DNA of 64,000 nt from Amphiscolops sp. MND2022. Its lineage: Eukaryota. Positions 1,210-59,964 of this stretch are shown piece after piece; positions within the stretch are counted from its first letter, which is position 1, and each line of letters starts with the position of its first letter. Location of the stretch: positions 33,854,001 to 33,918,000 of the forward strand of contig OZ076409.1 of the NCBI GenBank assembly GCA_964187785.1, in the 5' to 3' direction. Made by a program: the position numbers and the translations under genes. Under the pieces are notes generated by a model. It was not told the DNA's origin. It worked only from the letters and a program-made list of their open reading frames with translations, and searched no databases.

Positions 1210-1952
1210 TGTAACGGCAAGCTCTAGTACAGCAATATCAACCAACTTTGCAACTTCGACATGTTCAGAAAATTTTGTCAAAAATTCGTTCAAATCTGAC
1301 GTGGCACTCAAACATGCTCAAGACGAAGTACCTGCCAGAAAAAGCACCCCAGAAAAGCAGAAATCGCCGCTCGCGACGAACAAGCACCGGAGACGACTAA
1401 AAAGACGTCCCCGACGTATACAGAACACGGTATTGTGTCAATCTCTAGGAGATATCCAATACTACAGTAAAGGAAACCAGAGTTCCAGATGTTCGCCTGA
1501 GTATCCCTGCGGTATCCTGTGTGGCAACTAGCGCTAGCGCTGGGAACCTGAGGTCAATTTTCATCAAATGACTCTGAACTCTTGATTTCTTGTTGTATTT
1601 TTGATGTGGTAAATTAATATGCTCGAGAGCTGTTGTTTAACATCTGTTTATCCAATTTGGCGATTTTATCAGATTCTCCAATATTATGGTTCAACCTTCA
1701 TCGATTCTCAGCCCAATTTTTAAAGGCTAGTTGAGCAGTGGTCTTGAGTCTTGCAAGACGCCTGTTACTTTTAGCAGTTACAGACTAGGACCAGGCCAGA
1801 GAGCGTCCTACAAGACGGTTCCCCCACCTTGGGACTGGCTCCTTCGGAGGGAAAATGAGCTAGGGCCGCGGAGATCTAAGTCCCAGATTATATTCGCTGT
1901 TCTAGTTCCTCCACTCTACGTTGCGGTTCAAGCGCCAGCGCTTATCGTTACA
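1210..1952 (+). repeat. 5' LTR of element A
   Basis: Direct repeat of 6622-7364 with TGTAAC/GTTACA inverted termini. Confidence 0.95.
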
Positions 1953-1967
1953 TAGAAACTCATTTTT

Positions 1968-1984
1968 TGGCGACCACAGAGGGA
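1968..1984 (+). promoter_or_regulatory. Primer-binding site TGGCGACCACAGAGGGA (tRNA-Arg-like)
   Basis: Begins with TGG (complement of CCA) and is close to the complement of metazoan tRNA-Arg(UCG) 3' ends, recalled from knowledge and not matched to the host tRNA set. Repeated at 14590-14606 (-), 26399-26415 and 62171. Confidence 0.75.
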
Positions 1985-4655
1985 TCGTCTTGGGAAGCTT
2001 TCCCTAGCGGTTTTTAAAAGATCTGGCCCCCTGGTGTTCAGCGCCAAGCCCGTTTTCGACTCTGGACAGAAGAGAAGAGCAGAGTTTTACCTCTTTTTAG
2101 TCGTATTACGTCTTACTGGAACTGGGAGAGGCATTGAACCAGAGAAAATGCCGAAGAAAACGTGTTTTCAGGTGCGAAAATGGCATTTTTGGGCATTTTA
2201 GAAGGAAATCGCTCTTTATGTGTGATGTGTCGTATACCCATCAGCGGGTACTTTTTTGCAGGTGTAGAGGACTGTAGCACGTGGCTACGGGTGTCTAACA
2301 GGTTTTTTGAGCTATTTTCAGCCATTTTATGCCATGCAAGATGGTAACGGATGGATGGTTGACCATACTCCAGCGAGGCGAAGGAGGGGACGAATCTTGT
2401 GTTGCCTACTTCCTATTCCCGTTTCTCGTGGAGACGTCCTAGAGGCATGGTTTTTGGTGGACGGCAAGTGCAACGACAGACGGTGCTAATGGTCCCACCC
2501 GCGTGTTTCTATCTGGTCTAGAAGTGGAGAAATAACGTGGTGAAGATGCACCCCCTAGGACCAGATGAGTCGCTCAGATGGAGTATGGTTGGCGAAAATT
2601 TTGAAAATACACCTCTTTTGATGGAGAATCGTTGGTGCAGGTCAGTGACGTTCTACCATAAATGTAACGACACCCAACGAAGTGCTTTTCTGCGAAAAAG
2701 ATAGCACTTTGAGAAAAAAACCTCATTTTTGCGTTTTTTGGTGTTTTTCTTGATTTCGAGCACTAGTACTGACAGAAGCCAGGAAAGTGTGGTGGAAAGT
2801 TTTGAAAAAGCAGCTGCAAGGCTCGAGAAAGCCGGCACGAGGCACGAAAGGCGAAGTTGAAGCCTTTGATTGTGATAAAAGTGCCAATTTGATGCCGAAA
2901 AATGTGAAAAAAGTGGAAATTTGGCCAAAAAGGCACCCAAAATGTGAACGTACACGAGTGTGGAAGTGTAAAATGACAGTGTACGGCACTATCCCAAGTG
3001 TAGTTGACCCTCAGGATACTAATTGCAACTTTTGTAGCGGACTCAGGCAGCCTGGGGCTGATACAGTGCGAAAAACTTGTGATTTTTGGCATTTCCGAGT
3101 AGAGAAAGTGCATTAACCAAAAACACCCAGAGCAAAGCTTATTCGAAGAGAGCGGGCTCGAGCGCTCTCATTTTTGATTGTAGCAGCAAAAACGACGCAT
3201 TGTGGTGAAAACCGCATGCGAAAATTCCTTTTCAGCGTTGAGAAAAGTTGAAAAACCTTGATTTTTGGCCAGTTTCAGGAGTGCCAGAGTGCATCATTAA
3301 AACCTCTAGGGCACTCAGTGTTTTCGAGACCGGGGAGCCCGCGCGCTCCTATTTTCTGTTTTTATAATACAAACAACGCATCGTGGTGAAAACCGCGTGT
3401 AAAAACTCCCATTCAGTGCTGAGAAAAGTGGAAAAACGCACTGAATTTGATCAATTTTCCACAAAATCGGACTGTCTCTGAGCTAGGGTCGGGTCATTGA
3501 TTTCTGAACCCTAGCCAAAAAGCGGTTGCATCTTCGCAACCACTACAAAAATTAACGTCAGTGCCGAAAATTTGGTGAGCATATCGCTCACCCAAGTTGA
3601 GAAAAGCTCTCTGACGTTTCGACTTCAGAAAAGCACAAAAAGTCGAAAAAATCCAAAACTACCGGACTGTCAGTGCCTTATACCTGACGGGCACAACCAA
3701 TCGAGGGTAAATCCCAGTGCTACGGATAGTGGGGCAACACGCTGGTCCCATTTTGCCTGCCGTATCACTTTCTGAGGTGATCCTCTTGGTCAATTTGTGA
3801 AAAAAGTCGTCAAAAGCAGTGTTTTTTCGTGTACAACCTACATAGTGGGTCGAAACCTCAAATAAGCGCTCGCGCTTCAATTCGACCATATCAGTGGCAT
3901 TGTAGGTGCCCACAGGCATAAATTACCAAGTCTGGTGCCGATCTGTGTGATACTTGTTGAGAAAATAGGAAAAACGTGGCACCCAAAAAGGCGTGCAAAA
4001 AGGCAGTTTTTTCTTAATTTTTCCGAGTAACCCGGGCACCTTAGCCGACGGGTGGGGCTACATTGCAGCCCACCATCGTATCCTGTGCCAATTCCTACGT
4101 TGCTGCAGAGAATTTGAGCTTGCTAGCTTTTTCCAGTGGACCGCAATCTTGAAAAAGACGTGAAAAACAGTGTATTTCGGTACATAATGGTACCGCACGT
4201 CCGTACCTAGGTGAAACTGTGTAGAAGGGGCGCAACTCAAAACTGCGTTCATTTTCGTAAACCTACGTGTACCTAAGATCTGCTGGTCAATTTTGGGCTG
4301 GATACGGCGCTTCCCGTGCACACCCGAGCCTGTGGAAAGTTACCGTGCGAATTTTGAAAAATCCGAAAATTCCTTGAAATCCTTCCTGTGGGCGACTAGA
4401 GACTTTTTGCCCCAAACGAAGTTGATTTTTCAGCCCAGTGTGCTTGTGGAAAGACGTTGTGCAAATTTGAACAGCCTACGAGCTCTAGAACGTGTTACGA
4501 AAAATCTAGAACGTTGAATACCACCAAAATTCTTAAGTGCTCACCGGGACGACCAAGGGATCAGCTTCGAATTGAAGACCCTGGTGCGTTCGGCAACCCA
4601 ATTTGAGTCTTCCGAGTAATCGTGAGCGGTAACTCGATCGCTATCAACAAACGCG

Positions 4656-5987
4656 TTGACCACCGAACCGATGGCGGTGTCCCATACTGGTTCACAATCA
4701 TGGGTCACGATAGAGGGTTCGTGTTTTTCAGACGACATGTCTGATGAAGTCACTATCGAACAACAGCGAAAGGAGGAGTTGGCCGCTATGGTTCCTCCCT
4801 CAGAGAACTCCAGTATTTCTGCAAATTCGCGTCGAACTGAGCAGTGGGTCGACGAAACCTGCCGCGATAGAGCTAATGAAGTGGAAGAGGCCTGGCCTAA
4901 TTCGAACGTGACCGATGAACTGGCGGCCGAGGAAGGGTGCTCGCGCGCACCCACGGCTGGAGAAAGGCAACTTGGCTCACAAACTGACATGGAGCAGGAC
5001 CTCACTTATGTGGGAGGCATGAGTTACGCGCGACAGCGGGGACTCGGGACCACTCGAGGACCTACCCGGGTCTGTGCCTACGGGAAGCACAAAAAGGCAC
5101 GACCACCTCTACTACAGGTAGGCGAGCCACGTCAAGAGGCATCCCGTGTCAGGAGTATGACAGGCTCATTGGCCTCATCGCAACGGTCCTCAGTATACAA
5201 GGCAGCGTTATTGGATGCCCTAGCCGAAACCGAACGGGCTCTAGCAGGTCTGGCCAGCACTCGTTCTGAATGCAATGAGCAACATCTTGCTATCGTAGAG
5301 AACATTAAAGTGATGCAAGCGACGATGCGTGAAGGCCTGCAGGTCAGTGATCAATTGCGCACCGCGCAGAATGTGCAAAATGCTCGAGTGGACACATTGG
5401 GTCACCGGATAGGAGAGATGAATGACACGTTGATGTCTCGTGAGCTGCGCGTGGAAACGCAGATCAACGATTTAAGCAATCAGATGCACACGGTACTCAA
5501 TGCCATTGATGTCATGAGGCGTGAGAGGTCACTCCCGCGGCAGCCCAATGCAAGTGGAGGCGTGCGGAATGGAGGTACAGTCCGTGTCTCGGAGCCGACG
5601 TGCCCGAGCCAGGTAGTGAAGTCGGAACTGCCGAGCGCGCTAAAGCCTAGCACTTCCAGGCCGGCGGTGCCTGCGCCCCGGAAAGAGGAAGGAGTAGCCG
5701 GAAATTTGGTGATGGCCATGCCTGAAGCAGAGTGCAAGCCTGCACGAGTGCAGATGAGGGGGCATCACGACTCAGCAGAATCATTGATGCCTTCTGCAAC
5801 CCAGAGTACCACTCGAGATCAAGGCGTGGACCCGATGTCGACCATCTATCTTGATTCCTCGGTCGAAGTCGACCTATCTAACACCAAAGCAACCCTAGGC
5901 TCTCAAACCGAGGGAGCGACGTTTGCAACTGCCCCTATTTCGATGTCAGGACCAGATTCTTTATACTGGAGCGCAGACTGTTCTTAA
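4656..5987 (+). CDS. 443-aa Gag-position ORF of element A (low-complexity plus coiled coil; no CCHC, no pol)
   Basis: Intact long ORF; the start codon is uncertain. The N-terminal motifs EQQRKEE, EGCSRAP and YVGGMSYA match the gag-position region of element C (29130-29470). Central heptad-rich segment. Confidence 0.75.
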   Translation: MTTEPMAVSHTGSQSWVTIEGSCFSDDMSDEVTIEQQRKEELAAMVPPSENSSISANSRRTEQWVDETCRDRANEVEEAWPNSNVTDELAAEEGCSRAPTAGERQLGSQTDMEQDLTYVGGMSYARQRGLGTTRGPTRVCAYGKHKKARPPLLQVGEPRQEASRVRSMTGSLASSQRSSVYKAALLDALAETERALAGLASTRSECNEQHLAIVENIKVMQATMREGLQVSDQLRTAQNVQNARVDTLGHRIGEMNDTLMSRELRVETQINDLSNQMHTVLNAIDVMRRERSLPRQPNASGGVRNGGTVRVSEPTCPSQVVKSELPSALKPSTSRPAVPAPRKEEGVAGNLVMAMPEAECKPARVQMRGHHDSAESLMPSATQSTTRDQGVDPMSTIYLDSSVEVDLSNTKATLGSQTEGATFATAPISMSGPDSLYWSADCS

Positions 5988-6621
5988 TTATGATTATATA
6001 GTTAGTGTACCATTAGTGTTGCACTGGGTGTACGGCCAATAGAGTACGCCTGCCCCAGTGGCTTGAGTGACCAAGCAGAAAGAAAAGAAAACTATTGTTC
6101 AAAAAACTATCATTTTTGTTGTGCACCGTTCGCGGTGTTTTTGAGTTGTCACAATCAAAAGAAGTCTTATCCCTCTTGATTGCGTTTCTTTCTAGTCTAG
6201 TGTTCTTCATCAATCTGGTTGTTCACCGTAAGAGCCCCCAAGCTCTAAAAAAGTTTTTAATCGCCTGAAATGAAATGAAGACTTGTAGTCTCAAATGGTA
6301 AGGAAAGGAAATTTTAGCTGACTTTGCTCGCAAAAAAGTTTTTACACAAGTTGACTGCCCAAACGAATTTTAAACCGGCTGAAAACTGTAGCTCTCGAGC
6401 TGGTGCTAAAACCTAGTTCATGTTTTGTACGAATAGCTAGGCAGTAAGTTCTTTTTTTTGTGAAAAAACTGCAAAGTCGACCAAAATTGTTGCCGAAAAA
6501 CAAGGACTCATCCTTGTTCTCCGATGTGTGGATGGTGGTTCCCAGCAGTCACTGTGATGCAGTTCCCAGACGATCCAGACGCCGCTTGCCAGGGACGACA
6601 AGCCAGGAGCCTGGGGAGTGA

Positions 6622-7364
6622 TGTAACGGCAAGCTCTAGTACAGCAATATCAACCAACTTTGCAACTTCGACATGTTCAGAAAATTTTGTCAAAAATTCG
6701 TTCAAATCTGACGTGGCACTCAAACATGCTCAAGACGAAGTACCTGCCAGAAAAAGCACCCCAGCAAAGCAGAAATCGCCGCTCGCGACGAACAAGCACC
6801 GGAGACGACTAAAAAGACGTCCCCGACGTATACAGAACACGGTATTGTGTCAATCTCTAGGAGATATCCATTACTACAGTAAAGGAAACCAGTGTTCCAG
6901 ATGTTCGCCTGAGTATCCCTGCGGTATCCTGTGTGGCAACTAGCGCTAGCGCTGGGAACCTGAGGTCAATTTTCATCAAATGACTCTGAACTCTTGATTT
7001 CTTGTTGTATTTTTGATGTGGTAAATTAATATGCTCGAGAGCTGTTGTTTAACATCTGTTTATCCAATTTGGCGATTTTATCAGATTCTCCAATATTATG
7101 GCTCAACCTTCATCGATTCTCAGCCCAATTTTTAAAGGCTAGTTGAGCAGTGGTCTTGAGTCTTGCAAGATGCCTGTTACTTTTAGCAGTTACAGACTAG
7201 GACCAGGCCAGAGAGCGTCCTACAAGACGGTTCCCCCACCTTGGGACTGGCTCCTTCGGAGGGAAAATGAGCTGGGGCCGCGGAGATCTAAGTCCCAGAT
7301 TATATTCGCTGTTCTAGTTCCTCCACTCTACGTTGCGGTTCAAGCGCCAGCGCTTATCGTTACA
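6622..7364 (+). repeat. 3' LTR of element A
   Basis: Direct repeat of 1210-1952, preceded by ggggagtga. Confidence 0.95.
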
Positions 7365-9166
7365 TAACGCGCATTTATATAACTTAGGCTTGTAGGTGAA
7401 TTACTTGGACGAGTTTCATGATTGTAGTGTAACAGCAAGCGCTAAGCGTTTGGGACGAAACATTGGAGTGGAGGAACTGACACTATGGATATGGTCCGGG
7501 ACAAACCACCAGCTCACTTTGTCCTCCTGTGGGAGCCGGTCCCGAGGAGGGGGAACCGTCTTAAAGGATGCTCTCCGGCCTGATCCAGTCTGTAATTGCT
7601 GAGAATAACGGGCATTATGCTTTTTCTCTTCATAACCACCGTCTAGACAGCCTTTAAAAACAATGCCAAGGATAAACAGTGTAAATTTCCAATTCCAGGG
7701 TGAAATTCCAGGGTGACATGTGAATAAGGTCTAAAATGGGTACTAAGATCTAAACTGCGAAAACTAGCGCATAGGCTAGCTAAAACCAGTGAACAAACAT
7801 CCAAACAGGCACGACTATGGCCAACCACACAGCTACAAGCTGGGGCACAGGGACTCCAAGCACCAAAATAGGATAATTCGGCGAAAAGACGCATTTTTCC
7901 GGTTCTTGCTACTTTGGGTAGCATAATGCTGAAAATCGGTAAAAACCGGAGTTAGCACCTCAAAAAGAGTCTATTTATGAGTTTTCTGAGCGCATTGGCT
8001 TCTACACTCCGTGTTCCCGTTCGGTCGTCTCCGCGGGCGGCTTGCTTCGTCTTCTGAACTGCTTTTTGACAGGTACTTTGGCCAAAAACCTGCTCAATTT
8101 GCCACGTCAGATTTGAACGAATATTTGGTCGATTTTTCTGAAAACTCGTTGTATCACAGGTTTCCGTTACATCCACTCACCGGGTCTTATGCATGACATC
8201 CCTGTCATGGGGACAGGCTGGAAACGTCTCCACATCATTGCAATCCGCTGGGAGTTCAATCTGATGTTTTTGCAAGGGTCCAGTGGCACTGTCATCTTTT
8301 TCTGATTGGGCAACCTTGAGGTCTTGCTTCTTGAAATCCAGGAACCTGAATCGTCCACAAACTGTTGAAACAGAGATAGCCCTCGAGTTAGAAATAAGTA
8401 CTCAAAAATGCACCTTGAAATTGATCAAATCCCAAAAAAAGCACCAGTTTGTTAGCATGGTTTTTTTGCACCAAAACTGATTAGGATCTTTCTAGCACAA
8501 AGAATGTTTGGACATCTAAAATTTCTTTCACGGAGCTCTCAAGCTCCAAAACGCACGTGGTTTTCATCAAAAATTTCTTGTCCACGGCAGTAAAAACCCA
8601 GTTTGCTGAAAGTTAAAAGATGTTAAAAGATAAAACTTCTTTTCAGCGGAAAAACCACTGTTTAAAAGGAAAAACAAGCTGTATTTTCAACACTTTTTGT
8701 TCAGTTTCAATTGGTTTGGGCAACACGCACTGATGTGAAGCTCCATACCTGCATAGTGGTCAATTGCATCGGTTAGGCTGCGCATAGGAAGCAAACTACG
8801 AACTGCTCGTAAGTGTAAGCACTGGAATGAAATACGCCAGAATAAACAAAATCCAACAATTCAGACATCTGGAGCGCGCGAGCTCCACAACTTTCGAGTG
8901 TCAAGTTGAAATTTGGAGGAAAAACTGAAAACTTTGGGAAAATTTTACGCAAAACAAAAATAGCACCTTTTGGGCGAAGCAATACATGTTGAGTTTTTAG
9001 AGTTTCTGGGTTACTCATTGAATCAACAGAAGTCTTTGAATTCAAACATCTCAAATAAAACTAAAAACAAAAAAGTCGCGACGTACGTTTACATGACTAC
9101 TAAAATTACGAAATAAAGTTGCAGAAATAACTGCTCCAATTAGAACATCACGCTGCAAGGTGTTTG

Positions 9167-10624: not shown

Positions 10625-13600
10625 ACTGCTTGACTAGAACTCTTTTTGTACCCAAAATTAGTCTCAGGGTCAAAGTCAAGAAGAGCTCCAGTGGTCACAG
10701 CGTGCTGAAAAGTGCTCCACGATTTTCACGCAATGCGTTGAGCTGGAAAATTGTGCGCTTGGGCACAACGATGCGGTAGTGTCGGATAGTGTACTCGAAA
10801 CAAACAGTCGAGCTGCCTATTGACCTCTCAACCTAAAGGAATTTGGGTGTGTTGCAATTACCCAAAAGGGTTTTCTGCAGAAGTGACCTGTTATTTGGTG
10901 TTTGTTTTACTACTTGGCATAGCAGAAAAACACCAAATTAGGGCACCAGAGTGGTCAAAAAAGTTTCACACCCGGGCAACTTAGTCAAATTTTCGTCTCT
11001 AGGAGGTGACTCCTCTCAAAATCTCGTGATTTTGGTCAAGTTGGAACCTTCAGAGTATTTTCTGAATGTTCAAAACTCTGTTTGGGGCAACAGCGTAACT
11101 CCTAGAGACGTTCTCGTTGCAAAACGTCAGTCGGAAGTGCGTCGCAGGCACTTAAAACTTCCGATGGGGGCTTTATCAGGAACAAATTTTGAAGTTTCAG
11201 TGGAGTCAAAATTTATGACCTCTGCCGGCAATTTTTTTGAACCGTGGGTTTTGCCTCGTTTGCACCCAGGAAGGCCTACCAGGTCCCTTCGGTTGGAAAA
11301 GGAAGGCTTTTGGTCTCTGCCTTCCGTTCAGAAGGAGTACTAAGCTTTTATGTTTTCGTTTTTCCGACGGTTTTTCGGGATTTTGGCCCAAACGTGTCTC
11401 TGAGCACAGTCAAACTCAATTCTATCAGGCGTACTGGGTGGGAAAATGCACAGCACGTTCGCTCAGTCACACAAATTGCAAAATTGACCTGAGAAAGCTG
11501 ATAAATACCTCCAGGTACAAGCTAGAGACTTTTCAACCAATTTTTTGAAATTTTCAAATTTTTTTGAAAATTACTCGAGTGGCTCGTACTAAAAGTGAAA
11601 ATGTAGGATCGGGCTCAAAAAGTAGCCACGCGATCCATCGTATAACCAGGTGCACTGCAAAAAGCACCGTTGGGGTCTCAGACTATTGGATCAGTTTCAG
11701 ACACAGTACAGGCTTTCCGTATCGACGTGCCTCGACTGATACGATTTTTCAGTGTGCAATCAAGGACTCTCGTCCACGGTGCTGAGCTTTCAAGCTCACT
11801 TTTCCAGAAACGGTGCACCCAATGACACTGACAACAATGGTCCAGAGCAAAGTGGTCCCAACTGTCCGATGAGGTGCGCTGATAACTCTCAAAATTGGTC
11901 CAATTTGTCACAATACACAGGATATCACCACTGTAAGTAACGAAATGCTCTGTCCCAGCAAAGCAGCACAGTCGATACTGGCCACAAATAGCACGTAGAG
12001 CAATGAATTCACGACTAGTAGTTCTGACGAGGAGGTTTTCCGCAGATTTCCAACACGTATGGTTGGGTTTTACCCCTATCTCCCAATTTTCGTCTCGGTG
12101 AAACCTTAAGCAAAATCACGAAATGCACCTCTCAAGTCGGTCGAAATCACTTCTATGGGTCAGAGCGGCCTCAAACTTACTCAGGCAGTTGTTATCAACC
12201 CACAAACCTAGAAAATGAGTTTGGTTCAGAGTTACACGTTCGCTGAGACAAGCACGAAATCAACAGTCGGATCTGGCTCAAAATTGACCAGGGGTTACTA
12301 CACTCACGTAGGTACACGGAATTGGGCGCTGATTTGGGTTCCGAGGCTTGTACACACTTTCACCTGGGTACAGACGTGCGGTACTCCCGTGTATCAGTAG
12401 GGGTCAAAATGCACTCTAATCACACAACTTCTGAGCACTGGTTGCAGTCAGCGGTCTGGTTTTTCCGCTAGCAGTGTGCCAACCGGTACCAGTTACGTCA
12501 GTGAGCGGCAATTTGTTCTCACACTCCGGCTAAGGTGACCGGGTCTTTCCGAAAAAAATTGCAAAAAAGGCCTTTTTGTACCCTTTTTTGAGCGGTACGT
12601 TTCGTGCTATTTCTCGATGACCATCGTACCAATCGACCCAACACTTGGCACGCGTTGCCAGTGGGCACCCACAATGCTGGTTTGATAGTCCAATTGAAGC
12701 GCCTAGGCGTATTTGGGACTTCGACTAGGTACCGACACAATCTTAGAAAAAAACGGTCTTTTTTGACGCTTTTTTCACAAATCGGCTAAGAGGGTCGACA
12801 CTACAAACGTTACGACAGGGTCAGTGGGGTTAACGTGTTGCCCCACTAGTCACAGCACTACCACAAACTTTCAATTAGCCGTGCCCGTTCGGTGTAGGAC
12901 ACTGTCGGTCCTACAGTTTTGGAAAATTTCGGCTGTTTTAGCTCGTTCTGATGTCGAAACGTCAGAGAATTTTTCTCAACTTTGGTTAGCGCTAGGCCCA
13001 CCAAATTTTCGGTGCGAGCGTTTATTTTGATGGTGGTTGCGAAAATGCAACCGCTTTTTGGCTAGGGTTCGAGGATCTATGACCCGACCCTAACAATTGG
13101 ACAGTCCGGTCTTGTGGAAATTTGATCAAATTCAGTGCCTTTTTCCACTTTTCTCAGCACTGAATGGGAGTTTTTGCACGCGGTTTTCACCACTATGCGT
13201 TATTTTTATTGTAAAAACAGAAAATGAGAGCGCATAGGCTCCTAGCTAACAAAAAAAACAGAGTACCATGGGGGTTTTAATTGTGTACTCAGACACTCCT
13301 GAAACTGACTAAAAATCAAGGTTTTTCAACTTTTCTCGGTACTGAAAAGGAATTTTTTGCACGCGGTTTTCACCACAATGCGTTATTTTTAATACAAAAA
13401 CAGAAAATGAGAACCCTCAGGCTCCCAGGACTCGAAAACACTAAGTGCCCCAGAGGTTTTAATTATGCACTCTAGCATTCCTGAAACTGGCCAAAAATCA
13501 AGGTTTTTCGACTGGTGATCACTAAGAAAACGTTACAAACTCTTCTAAATCCTGTTTTCGGTACTGTGGAGTGTGCCCCAAACTAATAGCAGCAAGGAAG

Positions 13601-14621
13601 AGGCAATTGCATCACTATCTGGCACTCTTCCAGTAGCATTTCATGGTGGTTTTTTGCCAATTTCGCCAAAAACCGGGTTTTTTCATAAAAAATGCGTCTC
13701 AAAAAGGACTCCAATAGCCTTTCTGGTGAACATTACATTATGTAGCAGTACCCTAGAGGTTTCGAGCTGCTTTCCATCCGTTTTTGCAACTTCTGTGGTA
13801 AAAATCTAGAGCGCATGGGCTCGTACCAAGAAAAACACTCAGAAATGCCAAAATTGACGTTTTTGCTACTTTTGCACCCAAAATTGGACTTTTCTCACTG
13901 AAAACGGTTGCAAAAGCACACACTAAGTTGCAACAGGGTAAAACTAGCATGAACAAACGATTCCCCATCAAAAATTACACAATCGAAAAAAAATTTCATA
14001 CCATACTCCAAAAAATTGATTCTTCCGGAATGAGGGGTGGTACCTTCGTCGTCTTTTTTCTCAACATCCAGACCAGCTAGAGAAAAACAGTTTAAACCGT
14101 CGGCAACGTCAACACTTGTTCTACCTGTCCACCAAGTCCCATCCTTCGATGACGTCTGTAGTAGAAATGTGAAAGGAGAGTCGGGAACACTCGTTTCAGC
14201 TCATCTATCAGTCAGATGGAATATGGCGCATCCATCAACTGAATACCTCGTACATAGCCAAAAACGCTCAAATGAGCTGTAAAACATCTGTTACAACATG
14301 CGTAACGGCTTTCTAGCGGTTCGCTAGGCCATTACAAAGGTACCCGCTGATGGGAACGTGCAATTTTAGACGATACCTGTCAACAAATACCTGTTATCAA
14401 AACATACCATAGGTATTCGGGAAAATCCGGTGAAAGATTGGAAAAATACCAAAATATAACATCATATTATCTAAAAAACATGGAAAAATCCAGGGTAAAC
14501 GCCTCCTTCCAGAGCCAAATCGTTCTTGGCGTCAAACACCAGAGGGCCGGAACTTTTAATAACCATGAAGGAAAGCTTCCAAAAGACGACCCCTCTGTGG
14601 TCGCCAAAAAATGAAGTCCCA

Positions 14622-15373
14622 TGTAACGGCAAGCGCTAAGCGTTTGGGACGAAACATTGGAGTGGAGGAACTGACACTATGGATATGGTCCTGGACAAAC
14701 CACCATAGCAACAGCTCACTTTGTCCTCCTGTGGGAGCTGGTCCCGAGGAGGGGGAACCGTCTTAAAGGATGCTCTCCGGCCTGATCCAGTCTGTAATTG
14801 CTGAGAATAACGGGCATTATGCTTTTTCTCTTCATAACTACCGTCTAGACAGCCTTTAAAAACAATGTCAAGGATAAACAGTGTAAATTTCCAATTCCAG
14901 GGTGAAATTCCAGGGTGACATGTGAATAAAGTCTAAAATGGGTACTAAGATCTAAACTGCGAAAACTAGCGCATAGGCTAACTAAAACCAGTCAAAAAAC
15001 ATCCAAACAGGCACGAATATGGCCAACCACACAGCTACAAGCTGGGGCGCAGGGACTCCAAGCACCAAAATAGGATAATTAGGCGAAAAGACGCATTTTT
15101 CCGGTTCTTGCTACTTTGGGTAGCATAATGCTGAAAATCGGTAAAAACCGGAGTTAGCACCTCAAAAAGAGTCTATTTATGAGTTTTCTGAGCGCATTGG
15201 CTTCTACACTCCGTGTTCCCGTTCGGTCGTCTCCGCGGGCGGCTTGCTTCCTCTTCTGAACTGCTTTTTGACAGGTACTTTTGCCAAAAACATGCTCAAT
15301 TTGCCACGTCAGATTTGAACGAATTTTTGGTCGATTTTTCTGAAAACTCGTTGTACCACAGGTTTCCGTTACA
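14622..15373 (-). repeat. 5' LTR of element B (3' LTR at 7428-8171)
   Basis: Direct repeat with TGTAAC/GTTACA ends, adjacent to the PBS. Confidence 0.93.
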
Positions 15374-16169
15374 TAGTATCAACTGGTGAAGCTTACATAG
15401 CAATCGGGGTTTGTTTATAAAGAGTCCAACTTTCCCTACGCACACCCGGGATCGGAAAATGTATGCAAACAGCTGAATATCCAATGGGCTATTGGCTCCA
15501 TTTATAATATAACTTATTTCGGTGCGTTGCCGATGGTTCTGTTGGGGGTCGACCTACTGCACTTCCGATGCCAAAATCTCGGGGCCAATGGGTACCGACG
15601 CGGTTCCAACCCTATAAACATGGTACTCCTATTGCTATCGTAAACAAGTGCCAAACTTCATATCTCTGTTAATAGTCTTTGAGAAAACCCAACTCGGAGG
15701 GAGGGTTTTTATATGGTTTTTCTAGTGGCGAGTCAAAAAATATTTTCGCCCAAAATGGGATACCCAGTGAAACTCTCCAAGAGATCGATTTTGTTTCAAA
15801 CAATTCCAACAATAACATCGCTGACGTATTTAGGTAACATATATTGGAAAAATTCTAATGGGTCTTCCGTTACGTACACAATAAATTCATAAGTCTACCT
15901 AAAAGGCAAAAGCGCATCACTCATAGTCAGCCTTTTGGGCCGCCAAAGCTAAAGCAGTGATGCTAGATACGTGAAAATATGGTTTTCTGCCTATAGCCTG
16001 GGCTTCGCGTTTACATCATGGTATATACCATCGCGTATACATGATCATGACCTGTCTCAATTCACACCAAACCTTCAAGATAAACAGATCATTTGACCAT
16101 ATGGATAAAGGATATTGTAAGGATTAAGGACAGAGGATAAAACATAAGGTAAAAGTGAGACCCGAGATG

Positions 16170-21046: not shown

Positions 21047-21846
21047 CGCAAAAAGAATGTAGGAAAACGAAGCTTGGTCTTTCTTGGCAACAATCTGTTA
21101 GAGTATCTGGGGTGAGTTGTTATAGGTGTCAATATTGCTTTTTTGCTAGCTACAGGCAAAAAAGTAACTGGAAAAAGTGAAATAGCCTTTTCCCAATAAC
21201 TGAGCAAGTGGTTGCGAAGTTACTGTCCCACTCCAATAACACAGCAGGTCACCATTGAAGACGCATTTAGAAGTTTTTTCAATGAAGATTCAATTATGAG
21301 TTTAACCGGCATTTGAAAGGCCAGCCGGAGCAGTGCTCGCGCCGCCGGGATGACGCTCTTACCTCAACAAGTGGCGCCAACTCCCAGCTTAACTAGTGTG
21401 CATTTGAAAGTTTAGTTAAAGGGTTTTCAGGAGCAGAAAACCGATTTGAGCTGCGGTGATTATTCGTGGAGAAATGACGCTTTGAAAAAAAATTACCGAA
21501 TTTTCGTCAATTTTTCTGCTCAGCGCACAGTCGAGGTTAAAACACGTTTTTTCAATCGTCTTTCTTGGTAAAAGACGTCTTTTATCAATCTGTTTTGCAG
21601 TCTGTGATGATCAGTTTCAAGAATCATTGAGGATCGTTATGTGTAGTACCATTTATATTAAAAACCTCGAGTGATTATGTTGAACGGATCATTTTGATGA
21701 AAAGGAATTGTGACAATAATATGGAAATAGTCCAGAAAAAAATACTAAACTGAGGAAAAGAGATTGAATCAAATCTTTGAGGAATTGTTGGCCATTTTAT
21801 TGGAAGACGCATTTCAACAGACGGGAGAAAGGTTTGTTAATCGGAA

Positions 21847-21958
21847 TGGAGGCCTCAGGTTCAACAAATTTGCAGTCTGCGATTTGCAGTCGTTGATGCA
21901 TCGATGCATCAACGACTGCAAATCGCAGACTGCAAATTTGTTGAACCTGAGGCCTCCA
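21847..21958. repeat. Perfect 112-bp spacerless palindrome
   Basis: The arms pair base for base around TC|GA at 21902/21903. Confidence 0.95.
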
Positions 21959-23325
21959 ATCTAACAACGCTCAAGAAAAGGAAGAAAAAGAAGCAAACGA
22001 AGAACAGGGAGAACAAAACGTCGACGTTTCATTTTTTAGATTGATCAAATATAAAAATTTAAAAAAAACATGCTCGTTAGGGGGCAAAATCTGGAAACTA
22101 GTTTCATAACTGAACAAACGTTGCCTGAGTCAGACAAAAGTTTCAAACGATCTTTGTTATCTACTGTATACAGTAAGCTAATTATTTAGACCTTATTTTT
22201 AACTTGAATGCTTGTTTGTTTTTTTTTCAGTTGAAGCACATTATCGAGTTATATGCCCGAGCCAATGTGGTTTCTAGCGCCTTGTCTTTGCGAACTGTTC
22301 GCGTGTGAACTGTGGGTACATTTTTAGCTTTCCGACGTGCCAAAACGGTGTTCTGAGGTTTTCGTTCTAGGTTTTTGTCACTCCATGCGATAACAAATCT
22401 GGTTAGTTTTTTTGGAACTATTCAAATTATTTCATTTTTTTGACTGACTATCGTCTCAAATTCAACACATTTAAATACAACGCTCGTTTTTACTTCAAAC
22501 TCCTTGTGGTTACTTTATTTTTCTCTGATCGTCTGACTCCTAGAAAAAATAATTTCATAAACTTTTCAAGACTCTGCAGTGTGGAGGAAAGCAGTTTTAT
22601 ACAAGAAGCAGTCTTCGCTGCGATCCATTTCCGGAGAAAATTAGGTATCATTTGGGTTGAATTAATTATGATAATAATCGCAGTTTTTTCACCGAGGAAA
22701 CCTAATTTCCTCTTAGTACTTTAGGTGAAACGGTCAAAAATTGTAAATGCGGCGAAATGTCCCAATTTTGCTCAAAATCAGCTAATCGTATTTCACAACT
22801 TTGTCTTAAAGATTTTAAAAACGTACTAATGTGTCCTAATGTGAGCGATGATATTTCAACAAACTTTTATTTCTAATGTCTTTCAAACTTTTCAACAGAT
22901 TTCTTGAAAATTGAGCCTAAAATCGCACAGGGGATGATTCATAATCACAATACTGTATAGTGTTGTAGATAATGTACTTATTATTCCGAACAAATACAAT
23001 ATAAATCACAGAGAAAAATTAGCCATTTTTCCTTTGACTCGAAAACGTACTCAAGCTCCAATTGTTACTCGGAGACGATCTTGGAGCTCGAAAATATCTG
23101 CACACATTTTTTGTTATCATTACAATGACGTTTCACAATTTTCATCTCTAACATATGGTGTCAAAAATGATGATTCGTTGTTCATGCCACGATCAGTAGT
23201 GCCATTTCTCCACTTGCATCTAGTCTACTTACATCAATACAATTGGCACTGATTGTAAACCTTTTATACCTCCAGTTAGCGCCATCTTCCCATTTATTCC
23301 CATTTATTCTGCAGATAATCAAAAT

Positions 23326-26298: not shown

Positions 26299-29039
26299 TA
26301 TAACGTCATCTTGTGATGAACGAAATTTTGGCTATTTTTCCATTCCAATGTCACGACACAATCGCTTAGCGCTTGCTGTTACATGGAACATCATTTTTTG
26401 GCGACGACAGAGGGATCGTCTTTGGGAAGCTTTCCTTCATGGTTATTAAAAATCTGGCCCACCGGTGTTCAGCGCCTTGACAGTTTCGACTCTGTGGGAG
26501 AAGCCAGCACTTCGCCTCTTTTTAACGACTGCATGTATTCTTGGAAGTTGGAACGAGAAGGATCCTGAAAAACCCGAAAAAAAAACACGTTTTCAGGTGT
26601 GATTTTGGCTTTTTGAAGGAGAAAAATCAGTGAATGCATGTTTTGTGATGTTGTAATGTGTTAACTCATCAACGGGTATGTGTTTTGCAGGTAGTAGTTA
26701 CCGTAGCACGTGGCTACAGGTGTTTAACAGGTGTTTCTAGCTTTTTTCAGCTTTTTGAGCAATGCTGATGGAAGAAAAGCCATACTCCAACAGAGCGACG
26801 GGGGTACGATATGGAGTAATGTCGTTCGTTGTTTTCCGTTTCTCGAGGAGACGTCAAGATATGGATAGCGAGTGCTAGTGCTGACAGTGCTAACGGCCCA
26901 AACCGAAAGGCTCTAGCTTGTCTGGGTGTGGAGAAATTGCGTGGCGGATGGGTCATGATTCGCGAAATATTTTAATTTGCACCTTTTTTGTGGGGGATCT
27001 ATGGTGCAGGTCGGTGACATTGTTTGCAAAATGACGACATCCTATGGAACGCTTTTAAGCGAAGAAAACAACGATTTTTTGCAAAAGTAGCAATTTTTCG
27101 TGTTTTTTGGTGTTTTCCTTGATTGGAGCACGAGTGCTCCGTAAGTCCAACGTAGTCTTGCAAAAAGTGGGGCAAAAGTAGCCTCGAGCCCCGAAGGAGT
27201 CGGGAAATATAAAGGTTAACCGTTCTTAAATTTCATCAAGGGAAAAAGGATGTGTTTTGTTGTGAAAGTGCAAAAACTGGAAAAACGGGCGAAAAGTCAC
27301 CTAATACAACTGGTGTAGTCAGGTGTAGAAGCCTGGGGAATCGTTGTAAAGTGATTTCTCGAGCAAACCACAACTCCAGGGCACCAGAATCAAAATTTTT
27401 AGTGAGTTTAGCCGCTCCTGAAACCACGGATAAGCAAAAACTATATAATTTTGGCTCCTGTGGGCTATGTAGAGCACATAGTAAAAAATACTCCAGAGCC
27501 AACCCTAGATTGCACGAGAGAGCTTTCGCGCTCTCATTTTCTGTTTTTAAAGTAAAAACAACGTGTGGTGGTGTAAATCACTTGTAAAAACTCCCATTCA
27601 GTGCTGATAAAAGTGGAAAAACGCACTGAATATAACCAAATTTCCACAAAGTCGGACTGTCTAATTGTTAGGGTCGGGTCATTGATACCCGAACCATAGC
27701 TAAACAGTGGTTGCATTTTCGTAACCACCACCAAAATAAACGTTAGTGCCGAACTTTTGGTGAGCCTAGCGCTAACCAAAGTCGAGACAAGCTTTCTAAC
27801 GTTTTGACCTCAGAAAGTACTAAAACAGCTCAAAATAGCCGAAACTGTAGGACCGACAGTGTCTTATACCTAACGGGCACGACTAATTGAAGGTTTGTGG
27901 TAGTGCTGTGACTAGTGGGACAACACGTTGACACCATTTTGCCTGCAGTAACATTTGTAGTATCGACCCTCTTAGTCAATTTGTGAAAAAAGTGTCAAAA
28001 AAGACTGTGTTCGCTAAAATGGTGTCTGTACCCAGTCGGAAATCCTGGAAAGCTCTCGGGCTTCCATCAAATCCTTGAACCCGAATTGGGTGCCCACTGG
28101 CAACGCCTACCAAGTTTCGTGCCGATCGGTGCAGTGTTTGTTGAGAAATTGACGAAAACGTACTGCACAAAAAGAGGTGCAAAAAAAAACAAATTTTTCG
28201 AAAATTTTTGGAAGAGCTTGAACACCTTATCCGAAAAGTAGGGGGGTAAAGTGCAGCCCACTGGCGTAATTCGTGCTAATGGGTGCACTACTAGGGAGGA
28301 AACCGAACCGCTAACTGAACCTGGTGCTTAGAAATTGCATGATAAGCGTGCATTTTGACCCCTCCTGATACATAGGTGTACCGCACGTTTGTACCGAGGC
28401 GAAACAAGCCTCAGAGCCTGAATTGGCGTTCACCACCGTGTACCTACGTGTGTGTAGGATCCCCTGGCTAATTTTGAGCCGGACCCAACCCTTCAGTGAC
28501 GAATACGAGTTACTTGTGTTTTTTTCGTACTATCCGATGAAATTCAAAAATTGTAGTAGGTGTCTCGTGCTCGTTCCAACGAACATGTAACCCCTAACCG
28601 AGAATAGTTTCCAAATTTGAGGGTTGGAAACTAATGCTGGGGCAAATTTGAGCTGGCTACAACCACTAGAAGCGATTTTGATTTTTTTCAAGCGTGCTAA
28701 GACTGGGTTTTGGTTGAGTCCTCACCGGAAGGACCAGCGGTCGCGCACTCTCCAAGGACCCATAGGTACAAATTCTGTGATCTCTGAGTATACGTGGTTG
28801 TTTGGTAAGTCGAGCAGAGCGACGCGCAGTCTTTTACCTGCGAGCGTGATTATTTGGGCCTCGCTGATATCCCAGTGGTGCATTCGTTGATAGTTCATAC
28901 GTACCTTCGTGAACTTCCTCACGTAACAAGCAATCGCTACACCATGTTTTGGGCTGGTGCGCTGGCTATTGTCATACTACTTACGCGCCATTCAACAACC
29001 GCACCCAAAAAGAGCGAATCTTGTGCTTCCGGAGTCATC

Positions 29040-32000
29040 GGGACGGGTGAGATTCAGGAAACTAGCTCAACCCAACGCGAGAGTTCTGGAAGTGATAGTA
29101 ACTTGAGCATACGGGAATGGCCCACTGTTAAACCTTTAGTGACCAATTCCTCTTTTTCAGAAGCAATGTCTGATATAGTAAATATCGATCAACAGCGAAA
29201 GGAAGAGCAAAACGCTATGGCTCATGACCGAGATAATTTACCAGTTTAGGAGGAACTCCTCCGCACCGGACAATGGATACAGGACACCAGGAGCGGGTTA
29301 TTGTCACTTCAAACGGGTGGATTTTGGCCCAACTCAAAAAACCGGCTGTTGATACGACTCCTTTGCGCGAAGGGTGCTCGAGGGCACCAAATGAAGGTAG
29401 CAGCCCTGGCAGCAAAGACACTGATGCTATCCTTGAGAGCAAGACGTAGGTGGGTGGCATGAATTATGCCAAGTGTCGCTTGAAGGCCAGTCGTACGAAG
29501 GGCTCCGAAAACAGAAGAAGGTGCGTCTTCCGACATTGTGTATGCAGGATGAATGGGACCGTGACAATGCACAGTCAATTCGCGACGGTACCACCTCTAT
29601 CGCCACAACGGGTCATTTTGCCCGAGACTGTCCTACCCGAGATCAGGCTCACAAACCCGCCGTAGTCCCAGAGCCCGAAGCTGTGAAAATCACCATTGAA
29701 AACGTCGTATAGTGCATCGCGGAGAATTGTGGTCTGGTGGATCATGTGGCTTCACAATGTGTGGAAAACGCTGTGAGTGACGACTTCGCTCACAGCCGAT
29801 CGGCGGAAGTCGAGGCGGCTGGTGCTGCTGCCCATATTGTGCCATTAGAGGATGACCGTTTGTTGACTCTCCACTCCGTGAAACATCCAGCCTTCTACAC
29901 ACCCCTCACCATATATTGTGATGCCAAGCAATTGCAAACGCACTTGGAGCCAACAACCTTCGACCCCAAGGGCGTACGCTTATATCCAATCATTTGATGT
30001 TGGCTGCAGTGCAGTTGCGTCGCCCGACATTAACTCTAGCCAAAATTTGGACTAAACAATCTATCTTGTACAAGCGAGTGAAACTCCCCACACCCAAAGG
30101 AGTGGTATGTCCCCTGAGACTCGGACAAATTGACCACGTATTCTCCAGTGCCCATTTGTGCCACGATGGACGGCGTGGACGTGAAGTTTGAAGCCTGCGT
30201 TGTAGTTGACGTGTCCCCTCCCAACATATGCCTGGGACCTCAAGAGCTCAAATGCTACAACATCAGTTGCCAGGAACTCACCGGCGAAGAACGAATAGAC
30301 GAGCGTGCGTCGCTCGTCGTATCCTTCATAGTGCCCCATGCGGCACCGGGGTGGTGCTGGAGGCCTATCTGAACAACTTATACACCGCCATTGGCAAAAC
30401 TATCGAAACATTTGGAATGGCGGAGCGTGTGCGCTTCCAATTAGGAGGCTAAGAGTTAGAGACGAATTTCGTTGTGGTGGACGATGCAATGGGAGTCGAG
30501 GGCATCTTGCTAGGCCGCAACTTCCTTCGAGTTTATCAGGTCCCTGTTGATCTGACATCAATGAGGATCGTGGTTCGTGCGCCTGTTCAACCAGTCTGGC
30601 ACCACGCCCACACCCAGGTAGGTGACTTCACTTTAGCAGTTCCCGTCCCTTTAGACAGCGACCTAGTGCTGCAACCCTTCGAACGTACGGTTGTGGAAGC
30701 CAAAGTAGTCACTGCCACCCTAGAGCCGCTAGTGTTTCAAAACGTTGTGTTGAACGCCGCCCTTGCGGACGTGTCACTACAGAATGTTGTGTTTTTAGAG
30801 GACTGCGGTGTCACTGTCAGTGAGACAGGCCATGTGTTCATCAGCGTGATGAACCTCACGAGCAACCCACAACGTATTCGTGAAAACACCCACCTGGGAA
30901 CAGTGGTACCCGTAACCCTTGTGTACCGAGCTGTATCCCAACAAGTGGATAGTCCAAAACTAAAAACTGACTTTGATTAAAACCACGTCGATTTTGTTCA
31001 TAAAGTTTATGAGGAAATTATTCTCAGTACTAACTCCCAATTAACGTCTTCGTCAGAGTTCGAGTTTTTGTCGTCAACAGATCCTACTGAGGAAGGCCTT
31101 TCAGACCGCGAAAAGCGGAAACACACGGATCCTGACCTAATGGCTTCATGCCTGACCAGAGTCGCGGCTACAGGAAGTGAAGGACCTGTGAGGTTCTGAA
31201 GCAAGCACCTCTTTAGAAAACATTTTACCCGAGTTTGATGACTTGTTGACGAAACATAAGGCTGACATTGGTCGATGCACAATAGCCAAAAATCTATTAG
31301 ATGTAGAACCAGGTGCCGTGCCGCACCGTGGGGTTGCCAGGCGTATGTCCCCTGGAAAAGCAGCACGTGCCAACCAAGAGGTGTGTCAACCGCTTGCGCG
31401 TAGAATGATCCAACCCTCACTGTCCCTTTGGGTCAGCGGCATCGTCATGATCAATGCACCAATGGCAAGCTCCCCCATGAGACAGACGCCTCCGACCTAT
31501 TGTCTATGGCAGCAAGAAATTGATCGCTACTCAGGCAAAGTACAGAGCTCGTAAGTTGGAAATGTACGCCGCCTACCACTTCGGAAATGTACGCCGCCTA
31601 CAACTTCATCGTCAAGAACCACAACAACTTGTGCGCGCGAAAGTTGACTTTGAGAGTAGACAACCAAGCACTGTCGTGGTTAAACACCTATTCAACCGAT
31701 CAGACTGGCATTGGTCGATGGATAATAGCTCTCGCGAAGTACCACTTCCGCGTGGAACAATGACCACGGACACAACATTGCAATGCCGATGGTTTGTCTA
31801 AACGGAATATTGACTATCGATGGCGATAACAACAGCTAGAAAAACATCCCCCAGTAGCTGAACGCTGGAACTTCTTGTCTCAAGATGAGTATGAAATATT
31901 GCCCACTGCATCATGGTTTGACGTGCAAGGCCGAATCATACCTAACCAACCTGATCTGCCATCGCTCCTGCGAAAAGTGCAACCCACCCCTCTTGATTTG

Positions 32001-33700
32001 GTTCAGCGCATTATTTGTCGCACACAACGGAACAAACGACAGGAAAAGCAAAAAGAAGCTTGGACGGCACCACTGCCGCCGCCTCACCCACCCGTGTTGC
32101 ACGCTCACGAAGACTTTTATCCTGACTATCCTGAAGACTGGATAGATGTAACCAAGGAAGCAAGCAACCGTTTACTTACTGCCCACCCACGAGGCCAGCG
32201 TATCAGTGTTACAGAATGCTCCCAATATTATCAAGAAGGCGGAGTGGAAATACTATTCGAAGTCTCAGCACTGATCTTCACAAGCTTGCCCACACTGTCC
32301 ATGGCATCAAAGTTCTAGTGTTAGCCCAGAACCGAGACGTTCATGTCTTGGCACTCAAAAAACTGGTCAACAACGAAAAAATTGACCAAGACATCTTTCA
32401 GGAGGATGTGCGTGCTGTTGCCTGCAACTATTTCAAACAAAAAAAAGGAACTGCTATTTTTGAACTCCAACGGAGTTCTTTGTGCGAAGTATCCTCTGTC
32501 ACAGCGACTGTTGCATGAACGGCCCCGCATGATTGTGATGCCCCAATTTACCAGCATGAGATTCTCTTTCGTGCGCACGATGCAATGGGTCACCAGGGCA
32601 TCAGCAGAGTTGTCGCGCGCTTACAAGAACGCCATACTTTGCCTGGGATTCGTCGCACTCTAGGGCAATACGTCAGTCAATGCCTTACTTGCCAACAAGT
32701 ACGAGATGAACCTGGCGACGTCCGCTTTCACCTCAACAACATCCGGAGTGGGTACTTTAACGAGCTGGTCCAGTATGAAGCTTTACCCCTCCAATGATGG
32801 CAACACGGGAATTTTGGTCATCATTGACCACTTCTCCAAATTTGCTGAAGCTGTACCTTGCAGTCACGATAGTATGACGCCATCACCACGTCTTGTTTAG
32901 TGCTTCAAAAATGGTTTGCCCGACAAGGCGCGCCCACGCGCATCCAATCTGACAACGCTCCCAATTTGCCCGCTGAGGTCTCGAACGAGTTCATGAAGGC
33001 CTCGCAAGTCACCAAGAGGTCACCTCTACCGCTGGTCACCCGCGTACCCAAGTATTGGTGGAGCATCAGAATCGCACACTCTCACTTTGCTGCGAGTATT
33101 TTGTTACCGCTGGATGCGCGACTGGGATAGGCACCTAGATGAAGTGCTTGGTGCATACAATTCTACCCGACACGCTACATCAGGGCATTTGCCCTACAAG
33201 TTGACGCGTGGTACTGAGGAAGCGATACCGCTCACGTACTTCTACCCTGAGTTTTCGACTCAGTCATTCGCGACGCATGACGCATATGTAGAAAATGTGT
33301 TGGCCCGCAAACAAGAAACTGGTGAACTGGTGCGTCGCAACACCCACCAAGCTCAATTGCATCAAAATCTTAAGGACGACCGCACCATACGGGCCAAGGC
33401 GTACAAGCAAGGTGATCTCGTATGGGTTTTTTGCCGATACGTCCCGCAAAAATGTTCGACCAAGTTGATGCGCGCCTAGCGTGGTCCGCTACGTGTAGTT
33501 CATGTTTTTCAGGAGGGACGTGTCTACATCCTAGACACTGGGCAAAAAGTGTACTTTGAACATCTTAAACCGCATCACAATGGCCCCACGGAATATGCCA
33601 CAACCCTTGACACTGGCAAAATCGCCGTCATCATGAATCCGGAGCCCGAGCGCTCCATTGAACCCATAAATGATCTATTCCAGCCTCCTTACAAGTCTGA
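29040..33700 (+). pseudogene. Decayed gag-pol of element C with the RT core deleted
   Basis: Zinc-knuckle remnants GHFARDC and CGLVDHVASQC. Protease C-terminus ILLGRNFL. The RT start (IQPSLSLWVSGIVM) runs almost directly into RNase H (PIVYGSKKL..QAKY...LEMYA) at about 31450. Integrase motifs HDAMGH...CLTC, IDHFSKF, IQSDNA, AYNSTRH. Many stops and frameshifts. Confidence 0.9.
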
Positions 33701-33979
33701 ACACTCATTTTCCGAAGCTTCGAATGTATAATTGCCTTCACGCCGACAACATTGGATGAATACGCGACTGCGCACCAAACTCCGTGTTGGAGAGTCTCAA
33801 GTGCATTATCAGCAATTCGATTATTTAACAACGGACACGAACGATGAATTTTCTGAAGCAAAGCTCCCCATTCCCACCTATCCCCAAGACCTGGAGCAAC
33901 CCATAACGCCTCCGGACTCATCCCCTGAGTATGATACCTCTTTTCATGACTGCCTCCCTTAATTGTTTTCTGACCACGA

Positions 33980-43486: not shown

Positions 43487-43672
43487 CCCTGGACATTCGC
43501 CTGCCCTGGACATTCGCCTGCCCTGGACATTCGCCTGCCCTGGACATTCGCCTGCCCTGGACATTCGCCTGCCCTGGACATTCGCCTGCCCTGGACATTC
43601 GCCTGCCCTGAACATTCGCCTGCCCTGGGCATTCGCATGCCCTGGACATTCGCCTGCCCTGAACATTCGCCT
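43487..43672. repeat. Minisatellite, about 11 x 17 bp CCCTGGACATTCGCCTG
   Basis: Direct tandem units visible in the sequence. Confidence 0.95.
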
Positions 43673-59948: not shown

Positions 59949-59964
59949 GGTCAACTTTGACCAA

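Follow-up and report, generated by a model that had tools for sequence, protein, structure and literature searches.

A 15–16-nt spacer between LTR and tRNA primer-binding site accompanies 3-bp target-site duplications in a Ty3/Gypsy lineage of Amphiscolops sp.

Four LTR elements with a displaced primer-binding site

The 64,000-nt stretch of DNA analysed here (referred to as the window) holds four copies, A to D, of a single lineage of LTR retrotransposons, the features of which are listed below by window position (LTR stands for long terminal repeat, PBS for primer-binding site, PPT for polypurine tract and TSD for target-site duplication).

Element A
1207–1209 and 7365–7367, + strand: left and right copies of the 3-bp TSD (TAA)
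1210–1952, + strand: 5′ LTR of 743 bp (TGTAACG...CGTTACA), 99.2% identical to its own 3′ LTR
1953–1967, + strand: 15-nt spacer from the LTR-terminal CA to the PBS; putative right-end extension of the cDNA
1968–1985, + strand: 18-nt PBS, 18/18 to the 3′ end plus CCA of host tRNA-Arg(UCG)
4626–5987, + strand: remnant of a gag-region frame, no Pfam match
6613–6621, + strand: purine-rich tract adjoining the 3′ LTR; putative PPT plus 2-nt left-end extension (GA is seen in junctions)
6622–7364, + strand: 3′ LTR, directly followed by the TSD with no spacer
Element B
7425–7427 and 15374–15376: copies of the 3-bp TSD (CTA)
7428–8171, − strand: 3′ LTR
14589–14606, − strand: PBS, 17/18 to tRNA-Arg(UCG)
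14607–14621, − strand: 15-nt spacer
14622–15373, − strand: 5′ LTR
Element C
26299–26383, + strand: internally deleted 5′ LTR remnant of 85 nt
26384–26398, + strand: 15-nt spacer
26399–26416, + strand: PBS, 17/18 to tRNA-Arg(UCG)
31303–34527, + strand: broken pol with pieces of RT, RNase H, integrase and C-terminal extension, interrupted by stops and frameshifts
38494–39187, + strand: 3′ LTR
Element D
61429–62155, + strand: 5′ LTR; the element leaves the window and continues to G000:C1:33933845
62156–62170, + strand: 15-nt spacer
62171–62188, + strand: PBS, 17/18 to tRNA-Arg(UCG), with a short deletion after it

Elements A (1210–7364, + strand) and B (15373–7428, − strand) are both internally deleted, with LTR pairs that are 99% and 98% identical, respectively, and A is non-autonomous. 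Element C, with its broken pol and 5′ LTR remnant, is an old copy, while the flanks of element D (TGA and TGG) form no exact target duplication. In all four copies the spacer between CGTTACA or TGTTACA and the TGG of the PBS measured 15 nt, as had been written in an earlier note on this DNA. The same note had described the LTRs of A, B and C as diverged, and their identity over aligned columns was indeed 67% (A–B), 66% (A–C) and 72% (B–C), whereas D was 96% identical to A, so that the four copies represent three independent LTR types. Exact matches to TCATTTTTTGG were found four times in the window, i.e., at the four spacer places and no others, and allowing up to one mismatch yielded 13 matches vs. 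5.5 expected.

The LTR end is correctly placed: in both A and B, the 3′ LTR stops at the same CA and is then followed by unrelated flanking DNA with the 3-bp duplication. The window's four copies do contain a second CA (within TCA) located 5 nt before the PBS, which would make the displacement a boundary artefact if it were the true LTR end. Nevertheless, 3′ and solo LTRs end at the first CA, followed by a 3-bp duplication, and the 16-nt Arg and Lys subfamilies described below have no second CA. The second-CA boundary was rejected, since the 3′ LTR junctions refute it, and we give it practically no chance of being correct.

Full copies of the lineage measure 16–19.5 kb (typically 18–19 kb, with an internal part of about 17 kb) and have LTRs of about 710–780 bp with TG...CA ends, the termini reading TGTA(A/G)CG...CGTTACA. 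Intact copies carry one long Gag-PR-RT-RH-IN frame (Pfam) plus another frame, about 1,400 aa long, that has no Pfam match, and the intact copy inspected has a CX2CX4HX4C knuckle and WRGPH, a GP-H variant of the GPF/Y motif. The second frame lies after pol (L054:3885–8093 and L044:2576–6865), and one stretch of it resembles what we take to be the start motif of SGNH hydrolases. Pol itself ends in a conserved 400-aa domain (L054:2451–3668; 38–42% between subfamilies) that is preceded by AT-hook-like RGRP repeats, and for which a protein atlas offered a lead to macro-domain-like proteins at 0.88–0.89, which is under the reliable level. The lineage is young and abundant, with many copies bearing 99–100% identical LTRs and more than 3,400 primer sites in the genome; about six copies, some with intact frames, lie in tandem at about 14-kb spacing at G000:C1:34.03–34.10 Mb (G000 being the whole genome).

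A number of further features were observed in the window. Elements A and B are arranged tail to tail with 63 bp between them, and their two U5 regions, about 67–80% alike, constitute an inverted repeat (7170–7615). In A, B and D, the untranslated leader (2.5 kb) contains a tandem duplication of about 181–183 bp (3150–3437 and 13140–13513). An unrelated old Gypsy-like element with broken frames and about 190-bp LTRs that are 81% alike occupies 54890–59950. In addition, there is a 118-bp near-perfect palindrome (21844–21961), a 17-bp minisatellite (43487–43673) and a MITE-like inverted repeat (44478–45010). A search of sequencing runs matched one run (share 0.18, contigs), in which no informative junction was found, and no RNA run was among the matches listed; a single contig, from run X1, has a loose end resembling a cDNA-library adapter at about position 280 of the LTR (window 1490).

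The displaced site is a host tRNA complement

When the PBS was matched to the host tRNAs, the site of element A proved to be a true tRNA complement, pairing with tRNA-Arg(UCG) at all 18 positions. One subfamily carries a different PBS, which matches host tRNA-Lys(UUU) 18/18. Genes for tRNA-Arg(UCG) occur in tandem, with 215 pattern matches in the genome and 14 genes in one 3-kb locus; long arrays of tRNA-Arg(UCG) (174-bp period) and tRNA-Lys(UUU) (193-bp period) were seen at G000:C9:57.54–57.59 Mb, C7:5.22–5.25 Mb and C1504. Pairing of the spacer with other parts of the tRNA was rejected, as the best duplexes were weak and the cognate tRNA performed no better.

As one of two options, the earlier note had put forward a 3′-extended (oligo-adenylated) tRNA that pairs with the T run of the spacer. 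DNA synthesis would in that case begin nearer the LTR. Every subfamily seen does have 4–5 T in a row just 5′ of the PBS. Of the first 100 Arg copies among the matches listed, however, 32 have an A directly 5′ of the PBS, as have nearly all of the first 100 Lys copies among the matches listed. Such an A would not pair with an oligo(A) tail and would be overwritten by it, so that many Arg and nearly all listed Lys copies speak against this option. Moreover, one of the junctions described below (L173) has the T run without any PBS, the trailer of the tRNA-Arg gene is itself T-rich, and 10–11 nt of the spacer would still be left unexplained and in need of removal. We therefore regard an extended primer as very improbable.

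Spacer length across the genome

Spacer length was counted for every perfect 16-base Arg PBS found after TTACA in the whole genome (1.07 Gb), for which reversed-pattern controls gave 0 matches. Among the resulting 2,941 spacers, 2,821 were 15–16 nt long, 68 were 14 nt, 11 were 0–13 nt and 41 were 17–40 nt. The 11 short ones, with a minimum of 5 nt, all look like single deletions, and the 41 long ones were mostly 17 nt, three of them being second matches of places already counted. In other words, no PBS abutting the LTR was present among the genome's Arg-PBS matches. A looser search gave 40 spacers of 15 nt and 50 of 16 nt in the first 100 among the matches listed. The Lys-PBS subfamily yielded 501 genome matches, and in the first 100 listed the spacer was 16 nt in 93, 15 nt in six and 11 nt in one.

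The length of exactly 15 nt claimed in the earlier note thus holds for the four copies of the window, whereas across the lineage it is 15 or 16 nt; the survey likewise showed that it does not vary freely. Similarly, the TCATTTTT end that was described as conserved is so in the window, while TAGTTTTTA and ACATTTTA ends occur across subfamilies. Spacer sequence in fact differs among subfamilies: the first T and, close to the end, a run of 4–5 T are its only general features, and TCATTTTT is not one of them. Since the spacer is 16 nt in most of the Lys copies listed and 15–16 nt in Arg copies whose LTR identity falls to about 66%, its length survives both a primer switch and LTR divergence.

Target-site duplications of 3 bp

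Target sites were examined from 90 LTR-end loci of three subfamilies, 58 of which were usable (25 pairs and 8 solo LTRs); the other 32 were left out for one of three reasons: no LTR start could be found, the set of loci did not contain the partner, or the LTR lay within a tandem. Together with A, B and two further pairs, the 25 pairs and 8 solo LTRs made up 37 insertions. An exact 3-bp TSD was found in 34/37, against a shuffled mean of 1.2, and a 4-bp TSD in 0/37; one insertion, inside an AT repeat, also fits 5 bp. The target shows a symmetric bias, with A at –3 in 21/34 and T at the mirror position in 20/34. As the bases beside the triplet vary freely, no shift of the boundary yields a 4- or 5-bp TSD, and this possibility was rejected.

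Three unrelated control LTR elements from the same genome had TSDs of 5, 5 and 4 bp, with 0, 0 and 3 nt before TGG. Moreover, a control family that shares the same last 7 LTR bases had a 5-bp TSD in 9/12 and TGG straight after the CA in 12/12; for its TGG motif, no tRNA was found in the genome with a guessed pattern. Loci L395–L406 represent a non-coding LTR family of about 4.8 kb, with 1.5–1.9-kb LTRs, a 5-bp TSD and a TGG motif that could be matched to no tRNA, the copy checked containing no frame of at least 200 aa.

The 3-bp TSD that accompanies the long spacer is what is new beyond the earlier observation, and both properties co-occur in one lineage of one genome.

Integrated junctions that retain the spacer

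Joined, unprocessed cDNA ends are known to leave junctions in which the ends are preserved, as in retroviral circle junctions. A search for LTR end–LTR start arrangements gave 49 matches vs. 42 in the control, i.e., no enrichment, and three same-orientation junctions of the lineage were found among the 38 loci examined from it. L173 retains 15 of 16 spacer nt followed by GA, while L174 and L175 retain 7 and 4 spacer nt, respectively, and end in GA microhomology with the PPT side. Searches for junctions with a PBS remnant, in which 20 loci were fetched from two patterns, revealed two more: L191, with the whole spacer, exactly the 18-nt PBS and GA, and L192, with the whole spacer, part of the PBS and PPT-side bases. 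These searches also returned one fold-back and one nested insertion. One PBS-remnant pattern had 37 matches vs. 26 in the control, with 0 true junctions among the 8 fetched, and the matches of another were dominated by a different repeat.

Both L173 and L175 have three LTRs and a 3-bp TSD at their borders, and L191 and L192 are damaged at the far end; these four three-LTR elements appear to fix end-to-end junctions of cDNA in the chromosome. In the five integrated junctions, spacer sequence, whole or partial, is retained and joined to a 2-nt left-end extension, so that the cDNA ends seem to carry the spacer. By analogy with retroviral circle junctions, they would be the trace of joined, unprocessed cDNA ends, at five loci and as rare aberrant products. 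Together with the genuine tRNA PBS and the lack of any PBS abutting the LTR among the Arg-PBS matches, they lend support to the other option in the earlier note, namely that the cDNA end bears an extension that is removed in an unusual manner.

A whole 16-nt spacer followed by a non-T base occurred at 17 places, of which 13 are mutated PBSs and four (at three loci) continue in other DNA. Two of these three loci are rearranged and have, at an outer U5 end, all 16 nt of the spacer joined to other DNA. For the A-type spacer, whole and then broken off, 0/5 places continue in other DNA. Because the search pattern itself selected for the break, the outer-spacer loci serve as an illustration and not as an enrichment. 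At G000:C7:28.93–28.97 Mb (L266–L270) and C9:30.06–30.07 Mb (L271–L272), rearranged copies were observed in which each side carries an outward-facing U5 end, one of the two being processed and the other having the whole spacer.

A candidate route for removal of the putative tail

The general view is that integrases of the retroviral type require a CA no more than about two bases from the end of the DNA and produce duplications of 4–6 bp. The data above are probably best explained by a Ty3/Gypsy lineage whose cDNA likely has a right-end tail of 15–16 bp; the element's own integrase probably removes this tail by a nick at the CA and then joins the ends with a stagger of 3 bp. The lineage has an 18-nt PBS for host tRNA-Arg(UCG) or tRNA-Lys(UUU). 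In standard reverse transcription the minus strand begins at the PBS edge, so that the spacer would be copied into the U5 end, extending the right end by 15–16 bp, while the U3 end would gain about 2 nt. Finished insertions have CA ends and 3-bp duplications, implying that the tail is removed. Integrase would make this cut as an internal nick at the CA, and host repair would remove the long 5′ flap. The first half of the spacer may also pair with U5 in the RNA and might help to set the length. An integrase nick is favored given the exact ends and given that no nuclease domain besides RNase H and integrase was found in Pol or ORF2. The tail that integrase likely cuts off would exceed the usual two bases about eightfold.

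This internal nick runs against retroviral precedent, since HIV 3′-processing is inefficient when the CA lies more than 2 nucleotides from the end, although tetrameric HIV integrase can cut the internal CA of an LTR–LTR junction (both from the accessible part of PMC1905944). The same requirement for a CA near the end would speak for a tail shortened before integrase acts, by a host exonuclease, a flap nuclease or a plus-strand stop near the CA, leaving integrase to handle a near-normal end. No special feature was found in the integrase, and the junctions with 7 (L174) and 4 (L175) spacer nt could be trimming intermediates. Both of these, however, end in GA microhomology and are explained by end-joining, while the three other junctions have 15 nt or the whole spacer. 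Finished insertions moreover stop exactly at the CA in the pairs examined, and, as said above, Pol and ORF2 yielded no further nuclease domain. We consider trimming by an outside agent rather improbable.

The integrase of intact copies is of the Ty3 type with D-D-35-E (best PDB match Ty3 Gag-Pol, E 4.5e-31), and the protein atlas matched the lineage to Gypsy integrase clusters at 0.96. A Tyr in the active-site loop was kept in 0/121 lineage matches (at least 55% identity), whereas a sister clade keeps it (14 matches); in HIV and foamy virus integrase this Tyr contacts the DNA end, according to the available parts of PMC2920056 and PMC3185514. Since the Tyr is also absent in Ty3 and in a control element with a 5-bp TSD and no spacer, its loss is a lead only, and was rejected as the cause of the long tail for want of specificity. 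The structure predicted for the integrase (AlphaFold) had a pLDDT of 46, too low for use. An RT-RH tree made from 112 sequences (9 loci plus the matches, out of 120, that cover at least 370 residues, with no named reference elements) placed the lineage beside the unnamed sister clade at 53–58% identity and apart from matches at 36–42%. The sister clade was not found in this genome (best match 55%). A metagenome scan for relatives gave 13 loci at 28–42% identity, none with a usable LTR–PBS junction, and viral scans gave nothing or chance matches.

Alternatively, RNA structure and not an integrase ruler might set spacer length: a U5 hairpin would be closed by the LTR end together with the spacer's first half, the U run would link it to the primer helix and integrase would tolerate the tail. 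In the 16-nt Arg/Lys group (10 sequences), a 14-pair hairpin that includes the first 7–8 spacer nt had 95% of its cells paired and showed 3 pairs with changes on both sides, and 8 of 9 single copies paired spacer bases in the minimum-energy fold. In Tf1-type elements, a comparable duplex beside the PBS has been described (10.1101/2022.12.06.519325). In contrast, the other 11 sequences had no common structure, cognate spacer–U5 pairing was no better than that of swapped pairs (p = 0.25), and z-scores were only –2.1 to +0.3; related sequences can moreover beat shuffles without structure. A universal U5–spacer stem was rejected, being present in one group only. Length control by RNA is, in our view, less likely than not, and it is compatible with the preferred reading of who cuts.

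A more specific form of the nicking proposal is that of an asymmetric, MuA-like integrase, which would trim 2 nt at U3, nick an att site located 15–16 bp inside the U5 end and join with a stagger of 3 bp whose origin would be independent of Troyka (see below); we put it forward tentatively, as a possibility that falls a little short of even. If it is true, pipelines that require a TSD of at least 4 bp and a PBS near the LTR would miss or mis-bound thousands of elements. The minimum TSD in the LTRharvest benchmark, for example, is 4–5 bp (PMC2253517). One young, abundant lineage seems to break the rules of end proximity and TSD length together, offering a natural enzyme and short, defined substrates for asking what sets end proximity and stagger in the intasome.

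Comparison with known systems

The lineage belongs to Ty3/Gypsy (Metaviridae) by domain order and ends. It has a Pol in the order PR-RT-RH-IN with Gypsy-type RT and integrase, and direct TG...CA LTRs, a PBS and a PPT; in common with that group are also the 18-nt tRNA PBS, the position of the PPT at the 3′ LTR, Gag ahead of Pol, the CX2CX4HX4C knuckle, the D-D-35-E integrase and the GP-H variant of the GPF/Y motif. It differs by the PBS lying 15–16 nt from the LTR, its 3-bp TSD, its 18–19 kb, the long Pol extension and the 1,400-aa second ORF. The TSD of 3 bp in 34/37 departs from the 4–6 bp typical of Gypsy elements in the accessible parts of PMC2253517 and PMC12440569, although TSD length is not a taxonomic criterion.

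With regard to the spacer, automated tables list some PBS offsets of 8–17 nt with 0–1 mismatches (at least five rows), for LTR ends that were placed by BLAST and are unverified (PMC13524379, in the part available), and these count against the long spacer being unique. In the literature covered on PBS distance, 3-bp TSDs and end processing (Repbase Reports and most subscription journals lying outside that coverage), no TG...CA Gypsy group with a 3-bp TSD or a fixed 15–16-nt spacer was found. The range of offsets given by one survey of Drosophila is presumably capped by the tool used. In that survey, the median offset is 2 nt and the range 0–5 nt (PMC2790888), while PMC11673190, as far as accessible, adds nothing about element ends.

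MuA and Tn3-type DDE transposases make a single-strand nick at an end that is buried in a longer duplex, the flank being removed later. Any likeness to the lineage would be one of mode of working only, as those are DNA transposons without reverse transcription. In Tf1, the PBS is reportedly offset by 9 nt. The self-priming Tf1/sushi chromoviruses resemble the lineage in that the PBS is offset from the LTR and PBS-adjacent bases pair with LTR sequence (10.1101/2022.12.06.519325, accessible part). Tf1, however, primes with its own RNA and its relatives make 5-bp TSDs, whereas in the lineage the primers are whole host tRNAs, a chromodomain match is lacking and TSDs are of 3 bp. Identity with this group was rejected, since the PBS matches host tRNA-Arg or tRNA-Lys 18/18 and not the element's own 5′ end.

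The closest parallel for the TSD is Troyka (Kojima 2025), which probably corresponds to Kuafuorterviruses and is the sole LTR group with a 3-bp TSD in the available text of PMC12440569, which gives no PBS distance. Troyka and the lineage are alike in their 3-bp TSD, their single Gag-Pol frame in Gypsy order and their animal-type host. In contrast, the same text gives Troyka CG...CG termini (CGCCA...TGGCG) vs. TG...CA in the lineage, LTRs of 100–400 bp and an internal part of 1.6–7.7 kb vs. about 710–780 bp and about 17 kb, and a CX2CX8–10HX4C knuckle without GPF/Y motif vs. CX2CX4HX4C with the GP-H motif. Membership of Troyka was rejected on termini, knuckle, motif and size, the comparison being with the published description, as far as accessible. 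The lineage is apparently a second LTR group with a 3-bp TSD beside Troyka, and independent of it.
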